Of a stretch of 64,000 nt of DNA, positions 13,636 to 64,000 are shown in pieces. Under the pieces are notes generated by a model. That model saw nothing but the letters and a program-made list of their open reading frames with translations, did no database searches and was not told the DNA's origin. Position 1 is the first letter of the stretch; the number at the start of each line of letters is the position of its first letter. This DNA comes from Protoeuglena noctilucae (taxonomy: Eukaryota), in assembly GCA_958009085.1 (NCBI GenBank), contig OY253681.1:806001-870000 (forward strand), in the 5' to 3' direction. A program made the position numbers and the translations under genes.

Positions 13636-16345
13636 ATGGTGGGCCTTGCCACGCAAGGGAGCGCAGTGTCCGCGCGTCCCGCGCCCCCCGCGCCGCGCTG
13701 CGTGTGCAATGCAGCATTCGGTATCCCCGGCGCCAGTCACGCGCATCGGAGGCGGGCGCTGCGCTCCGCTCGGGACAAAGGTCCGCAGCAGTGGGCTTGG
13801 TCCCCCGCCGGGACCCCGGGCGGGGCATCCGGCGGCCATGCGCCCGTGAGAGACATGCGTTGCTATGCGATAAAGAGCAAGCAGCAGCCCAAGTACGCCT
13901 GCTCCAACTGTGGCCGGCGGTATTTCCAGGTGCGCGTTTGCCTTTGCAAAGCTCCCAGGCGACCCGATCCGCGCAGCCGCGGTCCAATTCCGCTTCTCCT
14001 CGATCCGCAGCATCAAGGTCAGTGCGACGAGTGCGAGCAGTGGGGAACTGTCGAGGAGGCGTTGCCGGAGGAGTCGGAAGGCCGCGGGGGCGGGGGAGCG
14101 GGCAATCGCGCTGCGATGCGCGTGCGGATGAGCACCGCGACCGCCGCGCTGTCTCTGGACGAAGATGAAGACGGCGCGAGCGCAGGCGCGGGCGGTCGGG
14201 CCGGCAACGGCCGCGCGTGGCTGCAGGGTACGGGGCGCGTGCTGAGCTTGAGTGCGGTGTCCGCCACGGCGCGCCCCGCCCGCCGCCTGTCGCTGCCGGG
14301 CGCGGTGGGCGCCGAGGTGGGCCGCGTGCTGGGCGGCGGCGTGGTCCCTGGGGCCTGCGTGTTGATCGGGGGCGACCCGGGAGTGGGCAAGTCGACGTTG
14401 TTGATGCAAGTGGCGGATTTGGTGGCGGGAGTGCCTGGCGATGAGGCCGCGGAGGTGCTGCGGTGCCGGCCCGACAGCCCCGTGTTGTACGTGGTGAGGG
14501 GCTTTTATGTCATGGTGGCATGAGTGGGTGAAGGAGGTGTCGGTGTGTGGCGCTGTGCGTAGTTGTCGCAATAGCGTCTAATGCTGTGCTGTCTTATCAG
14601 GTGCCTCAGCTATCACCCGCACCTTCCCCCTTCTCCTTTCCGTACTCAGAGCGGGGAGGAGAGCGCCGAGCAGATCACCGCCCGGGCCGAGCGCATGGGC
14701 GTGACGCGCGCCTCATCCATCGCCCTCCTCTGCGAGACGGACATGGATGTCGTCCTATCCGCCATGGCATCCCTGCGCCCCCGCTGCGTTATCGTCGACA
14801 GTATCCAGACCATGTATCTGGAGGAGGCGGGGGCGTTTGCGGGGTCCACCACGCAGATACGCGAGTGTGCCAGGGCAGCCAATCGAGTGGCCAAGGAGAC
14901 GGGGGCGCCGGTGTTTCTGGTCGGACACGTGACGAAGGCGAGTGGGGTGGGCGATGGGGTGGATGGGGAAGTGGGCATGGACATTAACCCTCACTGCCAC
15001 CCCTATCACCACCCCCAGTGCCACCCTCACTTCCACCCCCACTACCACCCTCACTGCCACCCTCACTGTCAACCCCACTACCACCCCCACTGCCACCCAG
15101 GCCGGTGAGATTGCGGGCCCTAAGGTCCTGGAACACATGGTGGATGCCGTGGTGTACGTGGAGGGAGAGCGCAACGGCCAGCACCGCGTGTTGCGCACCA
15201 TCAAAAACCGATTCGGTTCCACCGACGAAGTCGCACTATTCGACATGGCTCCCGAGGGACTGCGAGCCGTACCTAATCCCAGCGAGGCTCTGCTGCGCAA
15301 CCGCAAGGCGGGGCTGGCGGAGGGGAAGGGCATTGGGAGCGTGGTGGCGGTGGCGTGCGGGGGCCGGCCGATGTTGGTGGAGATACAGGCACTGGCCACG
15401 CCGGTGCTGGACGCGGGGCAGCCCAGCCACACCTATGTGACGGGTGAGAGGGGGGGGGGGGGGGGGGGGGGGTGAGGGGGTGAAGCAGTGGTGTGGTGGG
15501 GTGTTGGTGATCAGAAGGGAGGGTGTGAGGGTGTGTGCCTGCCTGTTCCCGTCCCTCACCCCATCGCTCACTCCACCCATTCCCCTCATTCCACCCCCAC
15601 CCACCCATCTCCATCCCCTCTCCTTTCCACCCCCAGGCCTGGACGCCCGCCGCCTGTACCTCACACCATCCCCCATTCCACCCCATCCATCTCCCACCCA
15701 CCCCCCTCATCCCACCCCCAGGCCTGGACGCCCGCCGCCTGTACCTCATCCTGCAAGTCCTGCAGAAGCACGCGAGGGTCAAGGCGTTCGGCAGAGACGT
15801 GACGGTCAACGTCGTCGGTGGTTACGACTTCCGTGGCGATCCCTCGTCTGATCTGCCATTGGCGGTCGCGGTGACTTCGTCATTGTATGACAGACCCGTG
15901 GGGCACGAGGTGGCGTGCGTGGGGGGGGTGGGGCTCGCGGGGGAGATACGGGCCGTGCCGGCACTCGCCAGGCGCATCGGTGAGTGGGATGGGGGTGGAG
16001 GTGTGGGTGCGGGTGTGTGGGTGGGTGGGTGTGATGTCATTGTTGTGGGCTTGCAATTGTTCGGTTGTGTTACTACAGGATAGATCGAGTACCCAACACT
16101 CTATCATTGTATTATTGTATTGCCGTAGAATCACTCACTCAATCTTTCATTCTCCCCCCATCGCAGCGGAGGCGGATCGCATGGGCCTTCGTCGCATCAT
16201 CGTCCCCAAGGCGGGTTTCTCTGAGGAAGCGGCGAGGGGTGTGAGGGGGCAGGTGATCCCGGTCAGCAACATACGGCAGGCACTGCAAGCGGCGCTGGGG
16301 GGTGGGGAGGGGGGGGGGGGGTGGAGGGGGAGTGAGGGGGGATAG
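13636..16345 (+). CDS. radA: DNA repair protein RadA/Sms, probably organelle-targeted, multi-exon; start approximate
   Basis: Zn finger YACSNCG...GQCDEC.QWGT; Walker [52 protein letters not shown]; Lon-like C-terminus. Confidence 0.93.
14994..15098 (+). repeat. Degenerate 12-bp tandem repeat (cactgccacccc-like) in the C-rich 3' half of a RadA intron
   Basis: Reads as HCHP-HYHP-QCHP... in the shadow frame; lies in intron 14938-15100. Confidence 0.8.
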
Positions 16346-16530
16346 GGAAGGGGTGCTAGGATGGGTGGGAAGAGAGCGTTGGGTTTCTGATTTAAACACT
16401 GCTTGTGCGTTCAAATAAGGATTTGCGTTGAAGTGGCACGAGCGAGACGATCAGTTAAGAAAAGGACAGGTCCTACCACCCCTCTCGCATCCCACCCCAC
16501 CCCCACTCTGTGTCTGTCTGTCTCAGTTCC

Positions 16531-18174
16531 TCAGTGTTTCGGCCTCCTTGGCTTCGCCGTGTCCCTGGGCATCCCCTTCCCCTTCCCCTTCCCCTTCTTT
16601 GGCTTCAGTGACCACTTGGACGCATCTGCCTGGAGCCTAGCATACTTCTTCTTCCTGAGAAGCACGATAAGCGATGGGGAGTCAGCAATTGTCATGGTAG
16701 CAACTATCACGGTTGCTGTTATTGCTTGCCTGTACTCATCAAGTGGCACGTTCTCATGCACAAAACACCACCCCTCGCCTGTACTGTGCGATGGATGGGT
16801 CGTGCAGGATCTCCTCGGCCAGCGTCCTCTTCCGCTCCTTCTTGGCCATCCTCGCCGAGTGGAACTCCGCGCTGCCCTCCACCACCGTGCCCATCTGGAA
16901 GAACTTGGGGAGCTGAGGGGAGGGGGGAGAGGAGAGGAGTGGGTTGATGATGAATGGTGTGCACAGCACAATGCACCGGCGTGGAAAACGTCGTGGTGAT
17001 GAAGCGCTGCGAGCAGGAGTGACACTGTCACGTCTCCCCCATGCCATCAATCATCACCCCATCTCCAATTACCACTCGCCTTGGTGTCGTCGTGGGACTT
17101 GTAGAACCGCTTGGCGTCGAACGTGCCGCGCAGCTTCAGCACCCGCAGGTCCGTCTTGAGCTCCGGGGTCATCCGGGGCGCGGGGAGGTCAAACCACTTC
17201 GATCCCAGCGTCTCCGGGGCGTCACGCTTCGCCTGCCGGCGCTCCGCCCGGCCGTCCCGCGACCCCAACACCGCCCGCTTGCTCAGCCCACGCTCCTTCC
17301 CGCCCGCGCCGCGCGCCACAAGCGCCTCCCGCGCGGCGCTCGCTCTCTTTAACGCCCCGCGATCCTCCGCGCCGCCCAGCTCCGGCTCCCAGCGCAGCAG
17401 CCCTTCGTCCTCCATGCCACCTCCGCCCCCGCCTTTGCCGCCGAGCCGCAGCACCTCCCCCGGCTGCCCGTTCCCGCCTAGTATCCCCGCCATGCTCGTT
17501 GCCAATGCTCCCAACGCCTCCTCGTCCGACTCGTCCCAATCGCTGCCGGAATTGTCGACATTGTCGTCATCGCCGTCGCCGGCCCCGCTGGGACCCGGCG
17601 CGTCTTCCGCAGAGTCCGCTGCGCTTTTATCAAGTTCTTTTACTGGTGCTTCTTCTATCGCCGCCCCCTTGGCCCTTCCCCGCGCGGTACCGGGGCGGGC
17701 CGCCCTGGGTGTGCGCCCGCCAGCCGCCCGGGGCTCCGCGTCCCCTGCGCGCAGCGCGATGCGCCGTGCGTCTCCGCCATGTGAATATATGACATATAAG
17801 GCATCAGACAGCGCCCGCATCTGCATCAAATAGCCACTCGCCTTCCGATGCGGCCTCGTCCTCCGGGACCGCCTCGAGCGGGCGTGTGGCCGGAGCCTGG
17901 GCCCCGCGCAGCCGCGTGGAGGTTCGCCTCGTCAGTGTCGGCGTCTTTTCTTGCTTGCTCGCGGCCTTTTTGGTCCTGAGAGCGGCGCGGGAGCGACGCC
18001 TGTTTGCGTCTGCAGTCGACTTCAGGCCCGCGGAAAGAACCCTGAGCTTTGCTAAGGCCGCATCCTGGCGCACCTTCGCAAAGTGGACGTCGCGTCATCG
18101 TGCCCGGTCCCCGCGGTGTCCGAGACGTCGGAGGCCGACGCCCCCGCGCTGCTCATGGAACGCGTCAGCACCAT
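16531..18174 (-). CDS. FCF2: Fcf2/DNTTIP2 family pre-rRNA processing protein, multi-exon
   Basis: TLGSKWFDLPAPRMTPELKTDLRVLKLRGTFDAKRFYK | LPKFFQMGTVVEGSAEFHSARMAKKERKRTLAEEIL. GC donors at 17841, 17079 and 16778. Confidence 0.85.
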
Positions 18175-18656
18175 AGCGAACCCCAGCGTCTAATAGCGAA
18201 TGCGGGGTCTCCGCAGCGCAACTGATGATATATAATATGCGCAGAGGTAAAGATATGCAAAGGATAGGACTACCACAGCGCGCCCGTCACTGCGACGGCC
18301 TCGATGCTTTGGGGAGGCGAACTGTGCGGCTTGTGATGAAACAACGGGCCGAGACACCGCTGCCGCGAAGATGAGGTTTGGAAGAAGGCGTTGGGGGCGT
18401 TAACAGGCTCGCGAAGCTCCTTCCAGCGCCCTTAGCGCGCTGACACCTGACGGGGCGTGGCCAGAGGACTTGTTTCAGCTGCAGAGAACACGAATCTGAG
18501 TGCTGGCGTCACGCTGGGCAAAAGACCACATTCAGCGAATCCCTGCTGTCTTGGGAACGCCAGCAGGCATCGCGTACTGCGAGTTGGCTGGCGCTCAAGA
18601 CGAACAGAGCCCGTGCAGTCCAAGGGAGGCCCCCGCTCCTCGTGCCGCATCCGCGC

Positions 18657-21600
18657 ATGGTCAAATCCGCCGTCAGGGTCGTGCTGCGCACCAGGCCCAC
18701 CGCACACTTCAATGCGGACGCCATCAAGGTGACCTGCGCTGCACACAGCGTCGTCGTTCGTTTCCTCGCGCCGAGAAGGACCCCGGCCGCTTGGTGTGTT
18801 TCGCACGTCATGGTTGGAGGGAGAGTAGCTCACATGCGCGACCTGGTTGGCAAAGGAGCGGCGGGCGCTGCGCGCGGGGCTCGCGTCGCCCGCATCGATG
18901 CATGTTGGTCCCCCCAACGTGCCCTGTGGCCCCGCAGATCAGCCCGGGCGGCGACGAAGTGGAGCTGAAGATCAGTAGATCTCACGTAAACACGAGCGCC
19001 GGTGAGCGGCCCTCTGTCGCGCTTGCTCGGCGCTGCCCGACGCTGTTGTGCATCCTCCCGCGCGATTTCGCGCCCTCCCCGCCCGCTTGTCCAGATACCG
19101 CGGAGCGCTATCGCTTCCGCTTCGACGGCGTGCTGCACGAGGCGACCCAGGAGGATGTCTTCTCGGTGTGCGCGGAGGACACGATTGACGCCTTCATGCA
19201 GGGCTTCAACGCCACCGTCCTGTGCTACGGGTGCGCGTTGGGGATGCCAATAGCTACATTGAGAGTGTCTTTATCTGCACATGTGGCTGTACCTGTCGTT
19301 GTGTCCAGGACAGGCACACAAAATCGCATTCACAGTATCCAATTCGCATTCCGCGCGCAGGCAGACGGGCGCCGGCAAGACGTACACGATGCTCGGTGGC
19401 CGCGACAGCTACAAATCCCGCGGCCTCGTCCCGCGCTGCATCTCCCGCGTTTTCGAGGAGATACGCCGCTCCCCCGACCTCACGCGCACCGTCCGGATGT
19501 CTTACGTCGAGATTTACAACGAGCACATCTACGATTTACTGAACCCTGCGCAGGTGAGGTTGCTGGGGCTCTGCGGTGGAAGATCTTGCGAGCAGCACGT
19601 GCGCACGTCACGTTTCGCAACAAGCCGCGCCATGGAAGGGCCAGGGTTTCTTATAGTTCGCATAATCGAACTCACTCGAGCGTTTATCGTACATCCCGCA
19701 GGACCCCGGTGCGATTCAGATCGCGGACGGCCCCCGGGGCTCGGTGCTGGTGCGGGGGGTGTCGTGCCCCGTGGTGATGACGGAGCAGGACGCCCTGCAG
19801 CTCATGTTCGAGGCAAGTCGGTGGTTAGTGATGTGGAAAATAACTGTGCAATATCATTCTTGCAGGATGCTCGCGCTGTGCAGCTCGTGTGTTGCCGGGT
19901 GTCGTGACACGCGCATCCCCCAGCCCCCCTCCCCAATCGCTATATCGTGCTGTCTCGATCGTGCCACAGGGAGAGGAGAACCGCGCGATCGCCGAGCACC
20001 AGCTGAACACGATGTCGTCCCGCTCCCACGCCGTGGTGACGCTCTACCTGGAGACCAGGCGATCGCCCGTCGACCCCCAGAGCATCACCTCCAAGATGCA
20101 TTTAATTGACTTGGCGGGATCCGAGGTAAGAGATGGCATCTCACTGATACTGTCACTGATTCATGGCAGTGATGGGAGAGATGCACCTGATCGACCTCGC
20201 GGGGTCCGAGGTGAGACGTGGCATGTACATGGCATGTCACTAACAGTGATATTGAACCATCACCGACGGTGCTTATTGCCGGTACGATTACAGCCAGCCT
20301 GACAGTGTTAACAAACACCACCCCTGTCCCCCCTTTACCCCCCGCAGCGTCTTCGCAAGACCAAGTCGAGCGGCACGGTGGCCAAGGAGGCGACGTTCAT
20401 CAACAAGTCGCTGTCCTTCTTGGAGCAGGTGGTGGTGGCGCTGGGGGATCGAACCCGCGACCACGTGCCGTACCGGTCCTCCAAGCTCACCCACATGCTC
20501 AAAGACTCCCTGGGGGGGAACTCCAAGACGCTGGTAAGTGAGAGGGAGAGATGGTTGGTGTGACGGTGCTTGGGTGTGACCACCTTTTCCATGCTGTGAC
20601 GTTTCACATCCTCTCACTCTCACTCTCAATCCCACTCTCACCCTCTCACTGTCACTGTCACTCTCTCTTTCACTCACTCTCGTCTCTCATCTTTCATCTC
20701 CCCTCCCCAGATGGTGGCCAACGTGTGGGGCGACCCCGACCACCTGGACGAGACATTGAGCACCTGTCGGTTCGCCCAGCGGATGATGCGAGTGTCGTGT
20801 GACGTGGTGCAGAACGTGGCGGAGGACACGACCGCGCTGGCCAGGGCACTGCAGGCGCAAGTGGCGCAGGTGAGAGGGATGAGGGGTAGTGATAAGTGTA
20901 ACCAGTGATGGGCACTAGCGAGGGCACTGCAGGCGCAAGTGGCGCAGGTGAGGGGGGTTGGGAGTGTACCATTAATTGTTATCATATATCCATTTATTAA
21001 CAACATGTCCTGTGACTCGCAGCTCAAAGAGGAGCTGGCCATGTACGACGCCATGAGCAACCGTGCAGGCGTCACCTACGACCCCTACACCGCCGATCAG
21101 AAGCAGCAGCTCAAAGCGCAGGTGCTGGAGTTCTTTACCAACACCAATGCAGACGTATCTATGGGGTCCATCGAGCCACTTCAGTTCCTGTCCGTGCGTC
21201 ACATGACGGAGACGCTGCTGGTGTGCCGGGAGCTGTACCAGGAAGCGAGGGGGGGAAGGGGAGAGGTGAAGGGGGTGGGTTGAGAGGGGCACTGATGATG
21301 GCAGAGATCGCAGGGCGCATCAAGCCTTTCATTACAACGTGTTACATCACGCTTTCATGCCATTGCAGGGACCTGTGGGGGTGGGTGCAGCGACAGTGGG
21401 GAGCTCAGACAGAGCCCCAGCATCAAACAGTCCATTAAGAAACAACCAGGACGGCGATGGGGGTGATGAGGGCGATGGGGATGGCGACAGGGCAGAGGGG
21501 GCGACGTTGGAGAGGAGCGGGGGTGGGGAGGGAGAGGGTGTGGATGCGAGGGGTGGCGGAGAGGGGGAGGAGAGTGGGGAGGGGTCCGTGGATGGGCGCA

Positions 21601-36443: not shown

Positions 36444-38588
36444 ATGGAGGACACAGATGCTTCGGCTTTGCAGGTGCATACCTGCTGCCCGCGTTCCACG
36501 CCCCGCGTTGCTGCAAAAACCGTTGCAAGTACCATTGACATTGCCAAGCACCACACGCGATTGCTTGGCTCGCAGTCGCTGCTGGACCTCCCAGATGACG
36601 CTCTGCTACGAATACTCGCGCTGACGGACTCGGCGCGGGCCGTGGGGGCCGCTGCGTGCACTTGCCGGGCGCTGCGCGAACTGCTGCTGACGCGGCCGAT
36701 CGGGCTGGTACGGGCGTCGTTCCGAGATGAAAACCTGGTGAACGCGGTAGATGACGCGTTTGTCGCGAGGATGTGCGGCCCGGGGACGGAGATCGCGGAC
36801 CTGTCCGGGTGCTGGCGCGTGACGGACGCGAGCCTCGCGCATTTGGGCCGTTCAGGGACGATTCGCGAGCTCGATCTGTCCGGCTGCAAGAACTTGACGG
36901 ACGCGGGACTCGACCACGTCGAATTCATGGGCCGCGTGGAGCGGGTGGGCCTGGCGGGGACGCTCGTGACGGATGCGGGAGTGCGCAAGGTGGCAGCACT
37001 CGGCTGGGTGCGGTCGATCGACACCTGGGGCTGCCCGCGCGTCGGCGACGCGGCGATCGGGGAGCTGGCGGGCGCGGGCGTGGCGGCGGTGCGGCTGGGG
37101 AAGGGGCTCGCGACCCCGCAGGGGCTGGCGCAGCTGGCGAGGGCGCGTGGATTGCGAAGCCTGGACCTCCAGAGCTTCACGGGTCTCTGCGCCGACGACG
37201 TGGTGGCGCTGGCGGGGCTGAGGGAGCTGGAGAGCCTTTCTTTGGGCCCCCTGGGTGTGTCATATGCCGAGGGTCTGGACTTGGTGGCAGTGGAGGCGTT
37301 GGCGTCGATGCCGGCGCTGCGGGACCTGACCCTGGACGGCGTCTCGCTGCTACAAGCGGGGCCGCTGGCGGCGCTCACGAGCCTGCGCGAGCTCGGGGTA
37401 TCGTTTCGCACCACCGCGCCCGTCGGGCTGGCCGCGTTGGCGAGCCTGCCCCGGCTCACCGCCCTCACGCTCGAGTGCGACTGGGCCGACAACGATCTGG
37501 CAGATCTGTCGGGTCTGCTGGAGCGGCTGGAGTACTTGTCGCTGAAAGTCGCGCCGCCGGACCCAGCCCTGGCGTCTCTGGCTCACGCCACGGCCCTCAC
37601 CTGGCTCGCCCTGGACTGCACACCGGTGTCCAGGGACTTCCTGGAGACGCTGCCACCCCTGCCGGCGCTGCGTGCGGTGGAGCTGAGCCGGGCGTGGGTG
37701 ACGCTGAGGGACCTCGGCCCTTTGGCGCGGTTCCCTGCGTTGCGCGAGGTTCACGTGTGCGACTCGCTGTGGGGCATCGATGGGGGTAATGAGGTGGAAA
37801 GGCTGCCAGCTGGGACTGAGGATGGGTTAGAGAGTGGGGTGGAGGGGCTGCCAGTGGCCCTCGAGGCCTTTTCCTTCGACAAGTACCTGGGGCTTTCGTT
37901 AGCGCCTCTGTCGCATTACACGGGCCTGACGAGGGTCGATGTCACTGCGGTTGGAGAAGCGTGCGACGTGGCGCCCCTCGCATCGCTCACAGCCCTGCGG
38001 ATGCTGTCACTGACGCGCCAGGGCTCCCCAATGTGCACGGGGATGTCGCATCTGTCGGCGCTCACCGCCCTCACCAGCCTGTCGCTGCGCCGCGTAACCG
38101 ACGAGGATATGTGCGATTTCGGGGCTGTTCTCTCTCGCTTGTCTCGCTTAGACCATTTGGCCTTGCACGACTGCAAGCTACGCATCGACCCCACCGCCCT
38201 CGCGTCCCTCACCTCCCTGTGCTCCCTGGCAGTGACCCAATTCGCGCCCGACCTCTCTATCGGCGCTTGCACGGACCAGCACCTGCGCAGCCTGAGCCGC
38301 TTGCCCCGCCTGGAGGAGCTGAGCATATACGGTCTCGATGCGCACCGCGTGTCGAGCGCAGGCATGGCGGCCCTCGCCGAGGTGGTGTCCCTAGAGAAGC
38401 TCGTGCTGTGGTATGCCGAGGGACTGGGCCCCGAGTGTTTTGAGCGATATAGGCATGGTTTGACGAGGCTGACGCACCTGCATGCCGTGGTGCACGGTCC
38501 CAATGCACCCGCCATGCACCAAGCCATGCGGGGGTTTCAGGCAGACAGGGCACGCGACGGCTGGCACTTTGAGTTGCGGGTGCAGTGA
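36444..38588 (+). CDS. F-box/leucine-rich repeat protein, intronless, 714 aa
   Basis: F-box-like LLDLPDDALLRILA followed by LRRs (DLSGCWRVTDASL, LDLSGCKNLTDAGL, LTALTSLSL...). Confidence 0.85.
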   Translation: MEDTDASALQVHTCCPRSTPRVAAKTVASTIDIAKHHTRLLGSQSLLDLPDDALLRILALTDSARAVGAAACTCRALRELLLTRPIGLVRASFRDENLVNAVDDAFVARMCGPGTEIADLSGCWRVTDASLAHLGRSGTIRELDLSGCKNLTDAGLDHVEFMGRVERVGLAGTLVTDAGVRKVAALGWVRSIDTWGCPRVGDAAIGELAGAGVAAVRLGKGLATPQGLAQLARARGLRSLDLQSFTGLCADDVVALAGLRELESLSLGPLGVSYAEGLDLVAVEALASMPALRDLTLDGVSLLQAGPLAALTSLRELGVSFRTTAPVGLAALASLPRLTALTLECDWADNDLADLSGLLERLEYLSLKVAPPDPALASLAHATALTWLALDCTPVSRDFLETLPPLPALRAVELSRAWVTLRDLGPLARFPALREVHVCDSLWGIDGGNEVERLPAGTEDGLESGVEGLPVALEAFSFDKYLGLSLAPLSHYTGLTRVDVTAVGEACDVAPLASLTALRMLSLTRQGSPMCTGMSHLSALTALTSLSLRRVTDEDMCDFGAVLSRLSRLDHLALHDCKLRIDPTALASLTSLCSLAVTQFAPDLSIGACTDQHLRSLSRLPRLEELSIYGLDAHRVSSAGMAALAEVVSLEKLVLWYAEGLGPECFERYRHGLTRLTHLHAVVHGPNAPAMHQAMRGFQADRARDGWHFELRVQ

Positions 38589-38762
38589 GGTGCAGCGGGA
38601 GGGTGGGGGGATGGGGCCACAGTGGCTCTTAGAGTTGCGGGTGCAGTGAGATGGGGCGGCGGTGGCGCTGTGACTGGTTGGTAACTGTTTGGTTCAGCGA
38701 GTTACAATTTGAATCCCCGTCTATAAGGTCTAAAAAGTAGTACTACTATGCAGCGAGTCACA

Positions 38763-54890: not shown

Positions 54891-57800
54891 TCACACGTTC
54901 TCCCGTATGAGCAGCGGCGCCCCCTCGCATCCCCGGCTGTTGTCCACGAAGGACAGCTCCCACATCTCGATGCCCGCCGGCCGCAGGGCCGCCTCAATGC
55001 GACGCAGCGCCTGGGGGGGGGTGAGGGTGTGGTAGAGAGAGTGTGTGGTAGAGATGAGATTGAGAGTGGCAGAGGGGGAGAGAGTGTGGCATAGATGAGG
55101 GTGGAAGAGGGGAGAGTGGCAGAGGGGAGGGAGTGGCAGTGGTGAGAGTGGCAGAGTGGGAGAGGGGAGAGTGAGAGTGGCTGAGAGGGGAATGTGTAAG
55201 AGGGGAGAGTGGCAGTGGCGAGAGTGGCAGAGAAACGGGAGATGGCGAGGGGCACAGACTCCCTCGTCACCACCAATCCCCCTCCCTCGTTACCACCAAT
55301 CTCCCTCCCCCCCTTTCCTCACAACCCACTACACCCTCACCTCCCCTCACCACCCCACCCCCCCCCGCCCCCACCCCTCCTGCTCACCTCCTCATCTTCC
55401 GGCCACTCCCCCGTCCTCGTCCCAATCACCGCCCCGCTGTAGCTGAGCCCAGCCGCGGGTGCCACTCCCTGGTAGTAGAAGACACCGAATGACAGGTCGT
55501 CGGCAGCGTCCAATATGCGCCAGTGCTCCGTGGACGTCACGCCGTTGTCTAACACGCTGCGGGGATGGGGGAGTGGGAGGGGGGTTGGTTATAGGGATGG
55601 AATGGTGATGGTGGTGTTAAAAGCACTGCAGTTGAGAAGCCCCTTGCCACCCCACACTCCACCCCCATCACCTTCACCACCACCCCCTCACCTGAACCAG
55701 AACGCCCCCGGCTCCTCCCCCCTGCGCACCCGGTAGTGCCTCCGACACCACACCTCGCGCCCATCCAACGTCTTCACCCGAAACACGGGGTCATACCACA
55801 GGGTCTTGCCCCCCCTCCCCCGATACCACAGCTGGTACTGGCATGGGAATTGATCGTATGCCGCGTTCTGCCCCGCGGCCACCCGCCAGCTCCAATCGAG
55901 GTCGCCGTTCGAATCCCGCAGATGTCCCAAAAAGATCGCCTCGGCGCTTTCGTGCGTGAGGGGCTGCCCCCGCCAATGGGAGAAAGGGCGCACGGCCGGC
56001 AGCGTGGGTATCGATGCCGATTGGTCCATGCAGTTGTGCTTTTGGAGCACACAGAGGGAGAAGTCGCGGAATTGGGGGGACTCGAAAGACACGATGGCGC
56101 TGGGGGGGGATGGGTGGGAGGGGGGGGGGGATGAGGGTGTGGGGTGGTGTGGGGGGTGAGGAGAGGGGTGGGTGAGTGAGGGGTGAGTTGCTGGGAGTGT
56201 GGGTGGAGAGAATGGGTGATATTATCCTCACTCTCTTATCTCGTCCCCTCCCTCCATCCCCCCTCACCGGTACGCCCCACTGTCTCTCCCATCTCACCTT
56301 TTCTCTCTGATCTCACTTCCAATCCCCTAATTACCATCCCCCCTCACCGGTACGCCCCCACTTGGTCGTTCAGCCCCACGCGCTGCAGCTCATCCAATGC
56401 CTGCCGGCACGAGGGGTTGGCGAAACACGCTGCCACTTCTCTCGTGCAGTAGCGGAGCATGCGGAGGGTGCCTGAGGGAGACATGCCCTGCTTGGGAAGA
56501 AGGGGGACCTGAGAAGGGGGGGGTGAAGTTGGGTGAGTAGGGGTGAGAGGGGGTGAGTGGTGGGGGGGTGGTATGAGGTGGGGGACATGCCCTGCTTGGG
56601 GAGGAGGGGGACCTGGGGGTGGGGGGGGGGGGTTTAGTGGGTGAGAGGGGTGGTGAGAGGTGGGGGACATGCCCTGCTTGGGGAGCAGGGGGACCTGGGA
56701 GGGGGGGGATGGAAGGGGGACGGGTGAGTGAGAGGGTGATGGGTGGGTGGCGAAGGGGGTGGTGGTAAGGCGAGTGGTGGGCGTGGTGGTGCTTGCAAAC
56801 ACGTCGCCTCTGCCACCCCTCTCAGCCTTGCACGCACGCACGTTTCACACGCACCCCCCTCCCCCCCCCCACCACCCCCTTCACTCGCCCGCGTGACGTA
56901 TGCGTCCACCAGCACCAGCGTCAGAAACAGCCAGTCGTCAGAAGTGTCTCTCGCAGCCAGCTCCCGGCACACGTCCCTCGTCTCCCTGCCGGCCGCGCTT
57001 GCCCAGAACACGGGTCCGATCAGGGGCGTGCGGGAGAGGGCGCTCTCCCATCCGGCGACGGTGCGGTCGTCGCTGCCGCGGAAAGCGCCCAGTTGGTCAA
57101 GGGAGGAGGACTGCGGGTGGTGGGGTGTGGGGTGTGGGGTGTGGGGTGTGGGGTGTCGGGTGTGGGGTGTGGACTGCGGGGGTGGGGTGTGGGAGAGGGA
57201 GAGGGAGAGGGAGAGGTGTGAGAGTGAGAGTGGGACAGACAGTGACAGACAGTGAGAGATGGACATCGTCACTAAATGCACACTGCAGCCTCACCAGTGC
57301 GGGGCTGCATCTCAGGCACAGGCGCGTGGGGATGCGGCGGAGGGCATCCGCACGGGCACTGGCAGCGCGGCCGGCGAGTGCCTGAAACGCCGGGGAGGGG
57401 CCCTCGATGCCGACGCACAGGAGCACGTGGGCCGTCTGCGCCGCCTCCGCCAGCGCTGCGCCCTGGGGATGGCATGAAAGGTGGCGGGGCGTCCACAAGC
57501 GACAAATTAATTGCACCGCGTTCGCATCCCGATTGCGCGGTTGACTGCACCTTAATGTCGTGAAATACAAGTATCAATCACCTTCGCGTCGCCGGCTGTG
57601 AGGGAATCGTCCGCAAAGACGTCCACGGCGATGCGCGGGTCCGCCCACTGGATGCGCTTGGCCACGTGGCGCAGGACGCTCTCCCAGGGCGGGCCGAGGG
57701 GACTTGGGCCTTTCGACGCAGTGGGCGTGAGAATGAGCACCCTGCGCGGCGCACCGAATGCCGGATCGAACGAATGGCGGAGACCGGTAGTTGCAGCAGA

Positions 57801-61500: not shown

Positions 61501-64000
61501 GGTGGATGGGTGGTGGTGGATGGGGTGGGGTAGCAACCATTCATTAACACCCCATCTTTCATCCCCATCTCTCATCGTCTCTACTCACCCATATGACAGC
61601 ATCTTCATTTTTCATTATCTCTCCTCCTTCACACCGCAGATGGTGCAATTGGTTGCTTCTCATCTCTAGCACTGCTCCCCCCCACCGCAGACGGTGCAGG
61701 TGGCCGCGTTCCTGGGCAGCCTCCACCACTCCGGCCTCTACCGCCCCAGCCTGGTGGTGGCCCCTGCCACCGTGCTGCGTCAGTGGATGAGAGAATTGCA
61801 TCGATGGTACCCGGTGTTCCGCGTCTACGTCATGCACGACTCGATGAGGACGACGGGGGAAGCGACCCGGTGAGTGATATTACTGATAGAGAGTGATGGT
61901 GACTGTCATGCACGACTCGATGAGAGCAAGCGGAGAAGCGAGCTGGTGAGGGATGGGAGATGAGGGAGATTGCGTGAGAGTGAGAGTGAGAGTGTGCGTG
62001 ATGCACGACTCGATGAGAGCGCAGCGCAGTTCATATCCGTTGGCCCCTCCCCTCTCCATCGCCACCCCACCCCACCCCACCCCATCCACCACCCAACCCC
62101 CCCATTCACAGCGAAGCCAAAGAGCGTCTGTTGAGAGACGTTCTGGCAGAGGATTCTGGCATAGTGATTACTACCTACGAGCACGTGAAGCTGTTCGCGG
62201 ACGTGCTGCTCCCCGTCAGCTGGGGCTACGTGGTGTTGGACGAGGGTCACAAGATTCGAAACCCCGACGCGGACGTCACCGTGGTGTGCAAGCAGATGCG
62301 CACGGTGCACAGGTGAGGGCGGAGATGAGAGGGGGCGACACCAGTCAAGTGCACACAGAGATGCTCTTTCACTCACCCTCAACCCCAACCACCCACCCTT
62401 CACCCCCAGGCTCCTCCTCTCCGGCTCCCCCATTCAAAATTCCCTGGTGGAGCTCTGGTCTCTGTTTGACTTCGTCTTCCCCGGCCGGCTGGGCACCCTA
62501 CCCGTGTTCACGCAGCAGTTCGTGGACGCCATACAGGCGAGGAGTGATTAGTTACTAAATAGTGACTATTATCGTTTATATTTACTACTGATTTGCGGGA
62601 TGAGATGGTAACGCTTGCACTCCTCACCACCTTAACCACCCCATCTCCCACCACCCCATCCCTCACCCCCCACCCCTACACACAGAGCGGCGGCTACGTC
62701 AATGCCTCCAAGCTGCAAGTGGCCACCGCCTATCGGTGCGCTGTGGTGCTGCGCGACCTCATCGCCCCCTACCTCTTACGGCGGCTCAAATCGGACGTGT
62801 CGCTGCAGCTGCCCGACAAGACGGAGCACGTGCTCTTCTGCCAGCTCACGCCGGAGCAGAGGGCGCAGTACCTGGGTGAGTTGGATAGCAGCGCTAGTAA
62901 TGGCGATGGCAGTGCTTGGGTGAGTTGAATAGCAGTGATGGCAATACATGGGTGAGACAGTAGCTACATCAACGGTGGCATTTACCACAGCCATCACCGT
63001 CACGCATGCATGTTCCATTATCTTCCCACCCCCCCCCCCCCCCCCCCCCCCAAGCGTACCTGGGCACCTCCGAGGTGGCCCGCATCGTGAGCGGGGAGCT
63101 GCACGCGCTGGCGGGCATCGGGGTGTTGCGCAAGATATGCAACCACCCCGACTTGCTGAGCCGGGTGTCGATGGCGGGGGAGGCTGCGTATGGGGACCCG
63201 GAGAGGTCGGGGAAGCTGAGGGTCACGGCGAGGGTGCTGCAGATGTGGGCGGAGCAGGGGCACAGGTGAGGGGTATGGGTGGGGGTTGGTGCGGTTGGGG
63301 TTGTGACATGAGGGGTGGGGGTGAGATGAGGGGTGTTGTAGATGTGAGCAGAACCTCAATGCATGCACTTACCAGGAAGTGCAAAATGCACAGACCCCAC
63401 CTCTCACTCCCCCTCTCCCCCCCCACCCACGCAGAGCTCTGGTCTTCACGCAGACGCAGCAGATGCTCGACATCTTGGAGAAGGCCACGCAGTCGCTGGG
63501 GCTGCGGTACATGCGCATGGACGGCAACACGGCGGTGCGCGTGCGGGCGAGGATGGTCGACGTGTTTAACAGCGATGAGAGCATGGCGGTGTTCCTGCTC
63601 ACCACGCGCGTGGGGGGGCTGGGGGTCAATCTCACAGGTGAGGGATGGAGAGATGCGGAGATTGTGTATGTATTACTATTGTTATGATTGATATGTTTGA
63701 TACTCGTTGCTGCGGATGGCATCAGATTGGCGGTACAGATTGACACAGCCGCACGAGTCAAGCGCACATTCGCTCTTTTTGCACATGGGACGACTCAAAT
63801 TCCACAACACCATTGTACTTTACGTGTCAGTACACTCTACATGATATGCTATTGTGATATCCCATATCTATCGCAGGTGCCGACCGTGTCCTGCTCTACG
63901 ACCCCGACTGGAACCCCATGACGGACGTGCAGGCGCGGGAGAGGGCGTGGCGCGTGGGGCAGAGGCGGCAGGTCACCATCTACCGACTCATCACGAGCGG
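58538..64000 (+). CDS. ERCC6: SNF2-family ATPase ERCC6/CSB/RAD26 (CHR8-like), multi-exon, runs off the 3' edge
   Basis: [131 protein letters not shown]. Confidence 0.94.

Follow-up and report, generated by a model that had tools for sequence, protein, structure and literature searches.

Why does the end of an exon recur within the intron that follows it, with its peptide intact and with silent differences only? We addressed this question for a kinesin gene of Protoeuglena noctilucae in a stretch of 64,000 nucleotides (nt) of contig OY253681.1 (GenBank assembly GCA_958009085.1, positions 806,001 to 870,000 of the forward strand), hereafter called the window; all coordinates below are those of the window. 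The ten codons for MHLIDLAGSE that close exon 6 of this gene (copy 1) are present again within intron 6 (copy 2). On balance, we lean towards a tandem duplication that spanned the splice junction, with copy 2 being an untranslated pseudo-exon end and decoy donor inside intron 6.

The gene was modeled with nine exons (18657-21265) and an open frame of 440 codons. The G/C content at third codon positions (GC3) of the nine-exon model is 87% (414 degenerate codons, copy 1 left out); with its open frame, the gene therefore looks functional. RNA joints from run X9 confirmed two introns of the model (19231-19360 and 20870-21022), and one of its nine donors is GC (19813, the start of intron 5). Three exon peptides matched the Pfam kinesin motor family PF00225 with E values of 7e-14 to 6e-21, and the best named protein matches were KIF9 or “kinesin family protein 6/9,” with 58-83% identity over single exons. 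The KIF9 identity proposed in an initial annotation of this DNA was thus upheld, and from its motor exons and closest named relatives the gene is predicted to be a KIF9-type kinesin. The nearest named matches were from green algae (about 80% identity over one exon), and the nearest proteins overall were P0083 (89% over exon 7) and P0084 (84%). The source organism is marine, with a GC content of 60-72% and with donors that are mostly GT and some GC. The features of the focal junction are as follows.

19970..20125, plus strand: exon 6, from switch I (SSRSH) to switch II (DLAGSE), ending with copy 1; based on the open frame, positions 184-236 of the Pfam kinesin motor profile and splice signals.
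20126..20347, plus strand: intron 6 as modeled, 222 nt, GTAAGA...CGCAG, holding copy 2; based on the model and the gapless passage of the Pfam profile from exon 6 to exon 7.
20348..20533, plus strand: exon 7 (RLRKTKSSG...), positions 237-300 of the Pfam kinesin profile.
20096..20125, plus strand: copy 1, exon-contiguous codons for MHLIDLAGSE, with 5/9 degenerate codons ending in G/C.
20181..20210, plus strand: copy 2, the putative intronic pseudo-exon end with the same peptide, with 9/9 degenerate codons ending in G/C.
20094..20178, plus strand: first unit of the putative 85-nt tandem duplication, comprising 32 nt from the end of the exon, then the donor and roughly 50 nt of intron.
20179..20263, plus strand: second unit, entirely intronic, with an approximate end and an 11-nt internal stutter (TGGCATGT twice).
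20211..20216, plus strand: intact putative decoy donor GTGAGA, the same hexamer as the RNA-verified donor at 20870.

Direct re-reading of the window recovered both strings at the places given in the initial annotation: copy 1 with GTAAGA at 20096-20131, and copy 2 at 20179-20216, preceded by AG (20179-20180) and followed after 20210 by GTGAGA. Both copies translate as MHLIDLAGSE, and their seven differences, at positions 6, 7, 9, 12, 16, 18 and 24 of 30, are indeed all synonymous (CAT/CAC, TTA/CTG, ATT/ATC, TTG/CTC and GGA/GGG for copies 1 and 2, respectively, with ATG, GAC, GCG, TCC and GAG shared). A degenerate pattern for the peptide plus GT matched exactly two sites in the window and none in 100 shuffles. 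With a repeat finder, the likeness extended to 46 nt (D1; 20094-20139 versus 20179-20224, 36/46 identical, spacing 85), and a second similar stretch lay past the donor (D2; 20133-20164 versus 20229-20260, 72% over 32 nt, spacing 96). Beyond the donor, the units share GTRAGA NN TGGCAT and then TCACT.A. Their noncoding parts aligned with a score of 25, which none of 500 shuffles reached (shuffle mean, 9.3); the portion past the first 14 intron bases, taken alone, was matched or beaten by 74 of 1000 shuffles. Each head-to-tail copy carries the AG/GT junction (GAG/GTAAGA at 20123-20131 and GAG/GTGAGA at 20208-20216, spacing 85). By all signs in the sequence, the KIF9-like kinesin gene carries an 85-nt head-to-tail duplication that straddles its exon 6/intron 6 junction, and the repeated stretch forms the core of that duplication.

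The repeat could also be dismissed as an artefact of assembly or haplotype merging, for which only the general possibility of such errors speaks. Two marine metagenome DNA contigs, assembled in another study, each run through both copies without a difference or a gap (X5 record 11, 4269 nt, covering 16372-20640; X6 record 21, 3498 nt, covering 17375-20872). Therefore, the duplication is not an assembly artefact; we give that explanation almost no chance. Sampled words of the gene were all found in the runs labeled with the source organism, and 90-94% of them in marine metagenomes from a different study.

Which copy is spliced? Among the RNA joints listed, none came from a spliced contig over 20125/20348, and run X9 was nearly without depth in 19932-20205. 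Run X10 yielded one colinear, unspliced contig at the focal junction (211 nt, 20082-20292, depth 3), which may be DNA or pre-mRNA because it resembles the intron-covering contigs of X10 elsewhere. A sister junction in the same gene, whose exon end is also duplicated in the intron, was informative: an RNA contig from X9 joined 20869 to 21023, skipping 153 nt (GT..AG) and with them the intronic copy. The 33-nt left side of this contig starts 11 nt upstream of the repeat; therefore, the exon-contiguous donor is used at the sister duplication. By analogy, the upstream donor is probably also used at the focal junction. The peptides of exons 6 and 7 abut there at kinesin profile positions 236 and 237 with no gap, and splicing from the copy 2 donor alone would leave 85 extra nt in the mRNA and so shift the frame.

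The initial annotation had suggested that copy 2 could act as a 30-nt microexon and that both copies evolved under coding constraint. As a microexon or an alternative exon end, copy 2 would be translated in some transcripts; its AG and GT flanks, its length in a multiple of three and its intact peptide with typical codons fit this idea, as do the statistics below that reject neutral decay. However, the AG before copy 2 is a poor acceptor, with G at -3 and a pyrimidine fraction of 0.35, whereas all nine modeled acceptors have C at -3 and fractions of 0.60-0.90. Inclusion of copy 2 would place MHLIDLAGSE a second time where the profile passes from position 236 to 237, duplicating switch II, and the motif occurs once in each of the nine inspected homologues that contain it. 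A direct check of the sequence revealed no canonical intron (GT-AG, GC-AG or AT-AC) that removes copy 1 while keeping copy 2 in frame; swapping one copy for the other would need an AT..AG, GA..GA or similar noncanonical 85-nt intron. At the sister duplication (20921), the 78-nt interval has an in-frame TGA and is spliced out. A recursive-splicing-like TCCGAG/GTGAGA is also present at copy 2, with G at -3 and a pyrimidine fraction of 0.50. Taking together the acceptor, the frame, the profile and the lack of a canonical replacing intron, copy 2 therefore has no visible route to translation. The microexon proposal is thus disfavored, and translation of copy 2 is very improbable; as for constraint on both copies, the data require only that copy 2 stayed unchanged while copy 1 changed at silent sites.

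Under the junction-spanning duplication that we favor, an 85-nt segment containing the end of exon 6, the donor and about 50 nt of intron would have been duplicated head to tail. The upstream unit would retain the translated exon end and the working donor at 20125/20126. The downstream unit would be wholly intronic, its exon-end copy and GTGAGA leaving with the intron that ends at 20347. Junction duplications would be tolerated because one correct path of splicing is always left when a tandem duplication includes a splice junction. Where introns measure 90-220 nt, junction-spanning events would thus account for much of what a gene can survive; by simple geometry, at introns of about 100-200 nt most of the tolerable 80-nt duplications would have to straddle a junction, which would explain their enrichment there.

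Events of this kind recurred in the window. When local direct repeats were sought at offsets of 40-160, the scan returned 23 hits in 10 loci, compared with 0 in each of 20 block shuffles. Two of the 10 loci were coding repeats, and exact-seed repeats were inspected as well. Including the focal pair, we counted about eleven events at ten junctions in four genes within the 64 kb, with periods mostly of 76-85 nt. The other events were as follows.

19791-19807 and 19874-19890, plus strand: end of exon 5 of the kinesin gene, donor type; period 83, decayed, with differences of the Leu-to-Val and Met-to-Val type.
20843-20874 and intronic copy 20921-20952 (GTGAG), plus strand: end of exon 8 of the kinesin gene with its donor; period 78, exact 32-mer.
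15712-15748 and 15627-15663, minus strand: donor type; period 85, exact 37-mer.
56334 and 56254 (region 56254-56358), minus strand: donor type, exon end plus GTGAGG; period 80, exact 25-mer.
56647, 56565 and 56476 (region 56476-56708), minus strand: acceptor type, three copies; periods 82 and 104.
61616 and 61667 (region 61616-61704), plus strand: acceptor type, in an SNF2/ERCC6-like gene; period 51, diverged.
61829, 61905 and 61998 (region 61829-62017), plus strand: donor type, three copies, in the SNF2/ERCC6-like gene; periods 76 and 93, diverged.
62866 and 62910 (region 62866-62951), plus strand: donor type, an array of 44-nt units in the SNF2/ERCC6-like gene; period 44, diverged.

These events varied in form and in preservation. 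For the decayed pair at 19791 and 19874, about 0.7% of 300 shuffles scored as high. At 20843 and 20921, the sequences after the cores are unrelated and nothing beyond the core aligns; this event may be an insertion of the core plus filler rather than a clean tandem duplication. Its left edge could hold three further silent differences (GCG CTG GCC versus GCA CTA GCG), which may be due to chance, and can also be read as a stutter of the core start. The 37-nt repeat on the minus strand covers most of an exon of about 42 nt plus its presumed donor, GTGG; the acceptor of this exon (15758/15759) was supported by an RNA joint from 15758 to 16138. Duplications occur at both ends of a 161-nt minus-strand exon (56508 to 56348) that has no Pfam match. 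In the triplicated acceptor with its first 33 nt, the translated copy reads CTT CTT..TCT and the intronic copies CTG/CTC CTC..TCC, and variation within the 33 coding-derived bases is confined to third codon positions, including a site that differs between the two intronic copies. By contrast with this triplet, the intronic copies at 19874, 61640, 61905 and 62910 show nonsynonymous differences, as expected of untranslated relics, and those in the SNF2/ERCC6-like gene are also shifted towards A/T. All donor-type intronic copies inspected keep GT, except the third copy at 61998.

When duplicated units were subtracted from three of the affected introns (19813-19969, 20870-21022 and 61870-62111), the remainders were all about 73-75 nt (157-83, 153-78 and 242-169, respectively). 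These introns look like short ancestral introns that were lengthened by whole units. Judging from its recurrence in the 64-kb window, junction-spanning tandem duplication appears to be of a kind that is frequent in this genome.

We then return to the silent differences at the focal pair, for which the initial annotation had contrasted typical codons in copy 2 with atypical ones in copy 1. The contrast itself held, with 9/9 and 5/9 degenerate codons ending in G/C, respectively, against the GC3 of 87% for the gene; copy 1 is unusual but not unique, as third positions are just as A/T-rich in 26 of the 431 ten-codon windows of this gene. Six of the seven differences have G/C in copy 2 and A/T in copy 1, and copy 2 shows every silent A/T-to-G/C transition available in copy 1. 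Directly upstream in exon 6, only 2/42 codons end in A/T, compared with 4/9 inside copy 1; therefore, the A/T shift begins at the duplication boundary. Across the gene, third positions are more often A/T at exon 3′ ends than in the rest (18/88 versus 38/335, p = 0.03); the same comparison without the focal exon gave 14/79 versus 36/294 (p = 0.20), so a general A/T rule for exon ends was not shown. Folding of 60-nt and 40-nt windows at the donors gave z scores of -0.93 to +0.79, indistinguishable from shuffles. In the 40-nt window, copy 1 folds more weakly than copy 2 (-6.7 versus -12.7 kcal/mol), and neither differs from its own shuffles; the idea that donor accessibility was involved was unsupported by these z scores and was set aside.

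Several results weigh against our favored account in its simple form, that of a relic decaying since duplication. In simulations in which the translated copy was limited to silent changes and copy 2 was free to change, the probability that copy 2 kept its peptide with at least 7 differences was at most 3e-5 at all five divergences, from 0.26 to 1.2. Seven random substitutions would leave the peptide unchanged with P of at most 6e-5. Silent sites are near saturation, with 7 changes on 6-7 synonymous sites, whereas the adjoining duplicated noncoding part is only about 21-28% different (11/14 identical in the core; 72% in D2). The GC content is 47% in the translated copy, 67% in the intronic copy and 54% in the surrounding intron, a direction opposite to the naive expectation. 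Three other exon-end-plus-donor cores (20921, 15627 and 56254) are 100% identical over 32, 37 and 25 nt, respectively, whereas outside these cores their units are either about 84% identical or cannot be aligned. Outgroups were of no help: a scan with the exon 6 peptide detected no close relative in the metagenome contigs (34 loci, best identity 57%), and the three loci inspected (L001, L002 and L004) belong to distant organisms and have no intron at the exon 6/7 position; therefore, they cannot polarize the focal changes.

Had the intronic copy decayed neutrally, silent-only divergence would thus be very unlikely (P about 3e-5 or less). Such a relic could still have arisen by chance and been picked out by eye: if the density of about 10 duplications per 64 kb applied genome-wide, thousands would exist in tens of Mb, and for so many 3e-5 is not negligible. 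However, the expectation within the window, with its roughly 10 duplications, is only about 3e-4, and the A/T shift starts exactly at the duplication boundary. We therefore consider chance quite improbable. The divergence of the translated copy, synonymous throughout and shifted towards A/T, is a statistically real and unexplained feature. Either silent sites of the translated copy changed unusually fast after the duplication, or copy 2 was kept unchanged, or copy 2 derives from another coding template.

In the last case, break repair would have used another coding homologue as the template for copy 2, for example a divergent allele or a kinesin paralogue, and selection elsewhere would have filtered the differences of copy 2 from copy 1. 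Copy 2 does resemble ordinary coding sequence of this genome in its G/C-ending codons, exon ends of the MHLIDLAGSE type occur in other kinesin genes of other organisms, and the amino acid replacements that set the intronic copy at 61905 apart from its exon are conservative (Thr to Ala, and Thr to Ser twice). However, the similarity runs past the donor into the intron (GTRAGANNTGGCAT, then TCACT.A), which fits a local duplication and not an old paralogue, and we regard a foreign template as improbable.

In the second case, copy 2 would have been kept unchanged by selection other than on translation, acting in one of two ways. As a decoy exon or donor, it could tune splicing or intron retention. 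Alternatively, occasional gene conversion from copy 2 to the translated copy would make damaging changes in copy 2 costly; their purging would be possible in a very large population and would protect the decoy GT too. Consistent with this, the peptide and donor of copy 2 are intact although the flanking duplicated intron has diverged; the fully identical cores at 20921, 15627 and 56254 in otherwise diverged units hint that they are homogenized or constrained; and the retained GT of the donor-type copies, save at 61998, and the third-position-only variation at 56476-56708 point the same way. The nonsynonymous changes at 19874, 61640, 61905 and 62910 argue against it, however, as does the 23% divergence of the focal copies, at which conversion between them should have stopped, and the faster-diverging flanks are partly low-complexity G-rich or C-rich tracts that mutate quickly by themselves. 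On this evidence, non-translational maintenance of copy 2 is possible but unlikely.

Returning to the junction-spanning duplication, we infer that all seven differences are silent because the translated copy allows only silent change and the coding-derived part of copy 2 stayed unchanged. Our leading guess is that selection acted on the translated copy after the duplication, for example to favor the upstream donor or to break identity with the decoy. That intronic copies are held unchanged, as decoys or indirectly via gene conversion, and that the exon copy of switch II was in addition adaptively recoded at nearly every silent site, is a rather doubtful combination.

How does this junction compare with known systems? 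Rogers reportedly put forward, in 1989, a model in which tandem duplication across a proto-splice site is a source of introns, and a potato RdRp case is said to be connected with such a duplication. The closest mechanism described is the tandem duplication of a segment with a proto-splice site, AG/GY, put forward to account for the gain and sliding of introns (Lehmann et al. 2010, PMC2891723). The likeness lies in a short head-to-tail AG/GT segment of which one coding copy becomes intronic, in the unchanged mature mRNA and in the removal of the extra copy by nonsense-mediated decay or splicing. Set against that model, an existing junction was duplicated here, so that an intron was lengthened and not created; the GT...AG-bounded unit has a poor acceptor, with G at -3; and the events lie close together, with about eleven at ten junctions in 64 kb and with periods clustered at 76-85 nt. 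A saturated, purely synonymous divergence like that of the focal pair is not described in the passages of PMC2891723 that were consulted.

Introners of marine algae are interspersed multi-copy families with 3-9-bp target-site duplications and often terminal inverted repeats (Gozashti et al. 2022, PMC9860276). They resemble the present case in occurring in marine protists and in placing extra intronic DNA between direct repeats able to supply a splice site. The repeats here, however, are 25-46 nt of local exon sequence and not 3-9 bp. Searches with blastn of five such introns against the 64-kb window, looking for an interspersed family behind the intervening DNA, returned only self, local-duplicate and low-complexity matches. 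We rejected an introner or an intron derived from a miniature inverted-repeat transposable element (MITE), since there were no other copies in the window and the repeats are too long for a target-site duplication.

Duplicated 5′ splice sites can compete with each other, and decoy exons can promote intron retention. The focal intron resembles such systems in having two equivalent donors about 80 nt apart and an AG...GT-flanked, exon-like piece inside. It differs in that the one RNA joint on this point among those listed, at the sister junction, uses the upstream donor. A word search of the open-access literature, which cannot show absence, found neither an account of densely spaced junction duplications of about 80 nt in any marine alga nor a report of an exon end and its intronic duplicate having diverged by synonymous changes alone.

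Some further observations were made in the window. The motif AGTGATGG occurs 7 times, compared with 2.5 expected, and 1 of 100 shuffles reached 7. Four of the seven occurrences (20168, 20904, 61892 and 62934, plus strand) precede the start of an intronic duplicate by 3-10 nt; AGTGATGG could be a breakpoint or intron motif. An RNA contig revealed an intron of 167 nt at 16913-17079 on the minus strand, whose donor is GC and whose acceptor is AG; therefore, GC-AG introns are used in the source organism. A 49-nt unit occurs twice, with one mismatch, at 1582-1679, by eye within an intron of a minus-strand gene, and an exact 19-nt repeat with a spacing of 61, ending in GTGCAGTGAG, was found at 38571-38650. 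The scan for local repeats also flagged an array at 1-760, unrelated to the junction duplications, in which coding units of 126 nt (42 codons) resemble WD40 blades (..DxTVKLWN..).

Gene finders and read mappers will misplace donors at duplicated junctions such as these. The focal pair is a rare natural experiment, in which the same ten codons stand translated and untranslated within one transcript; it allows one to ask whether silent sites are under splicing-related selection and whether untranslated copies are under indirect constraint. If the recoding reading were true, the pair would be a natural case of selection-driven synonymous recoding caused by duplication of a splice junction. If confirmed genome-wide, short junction duplications would be a main route of intron growth in this alga and a standing source of competing splice sites.

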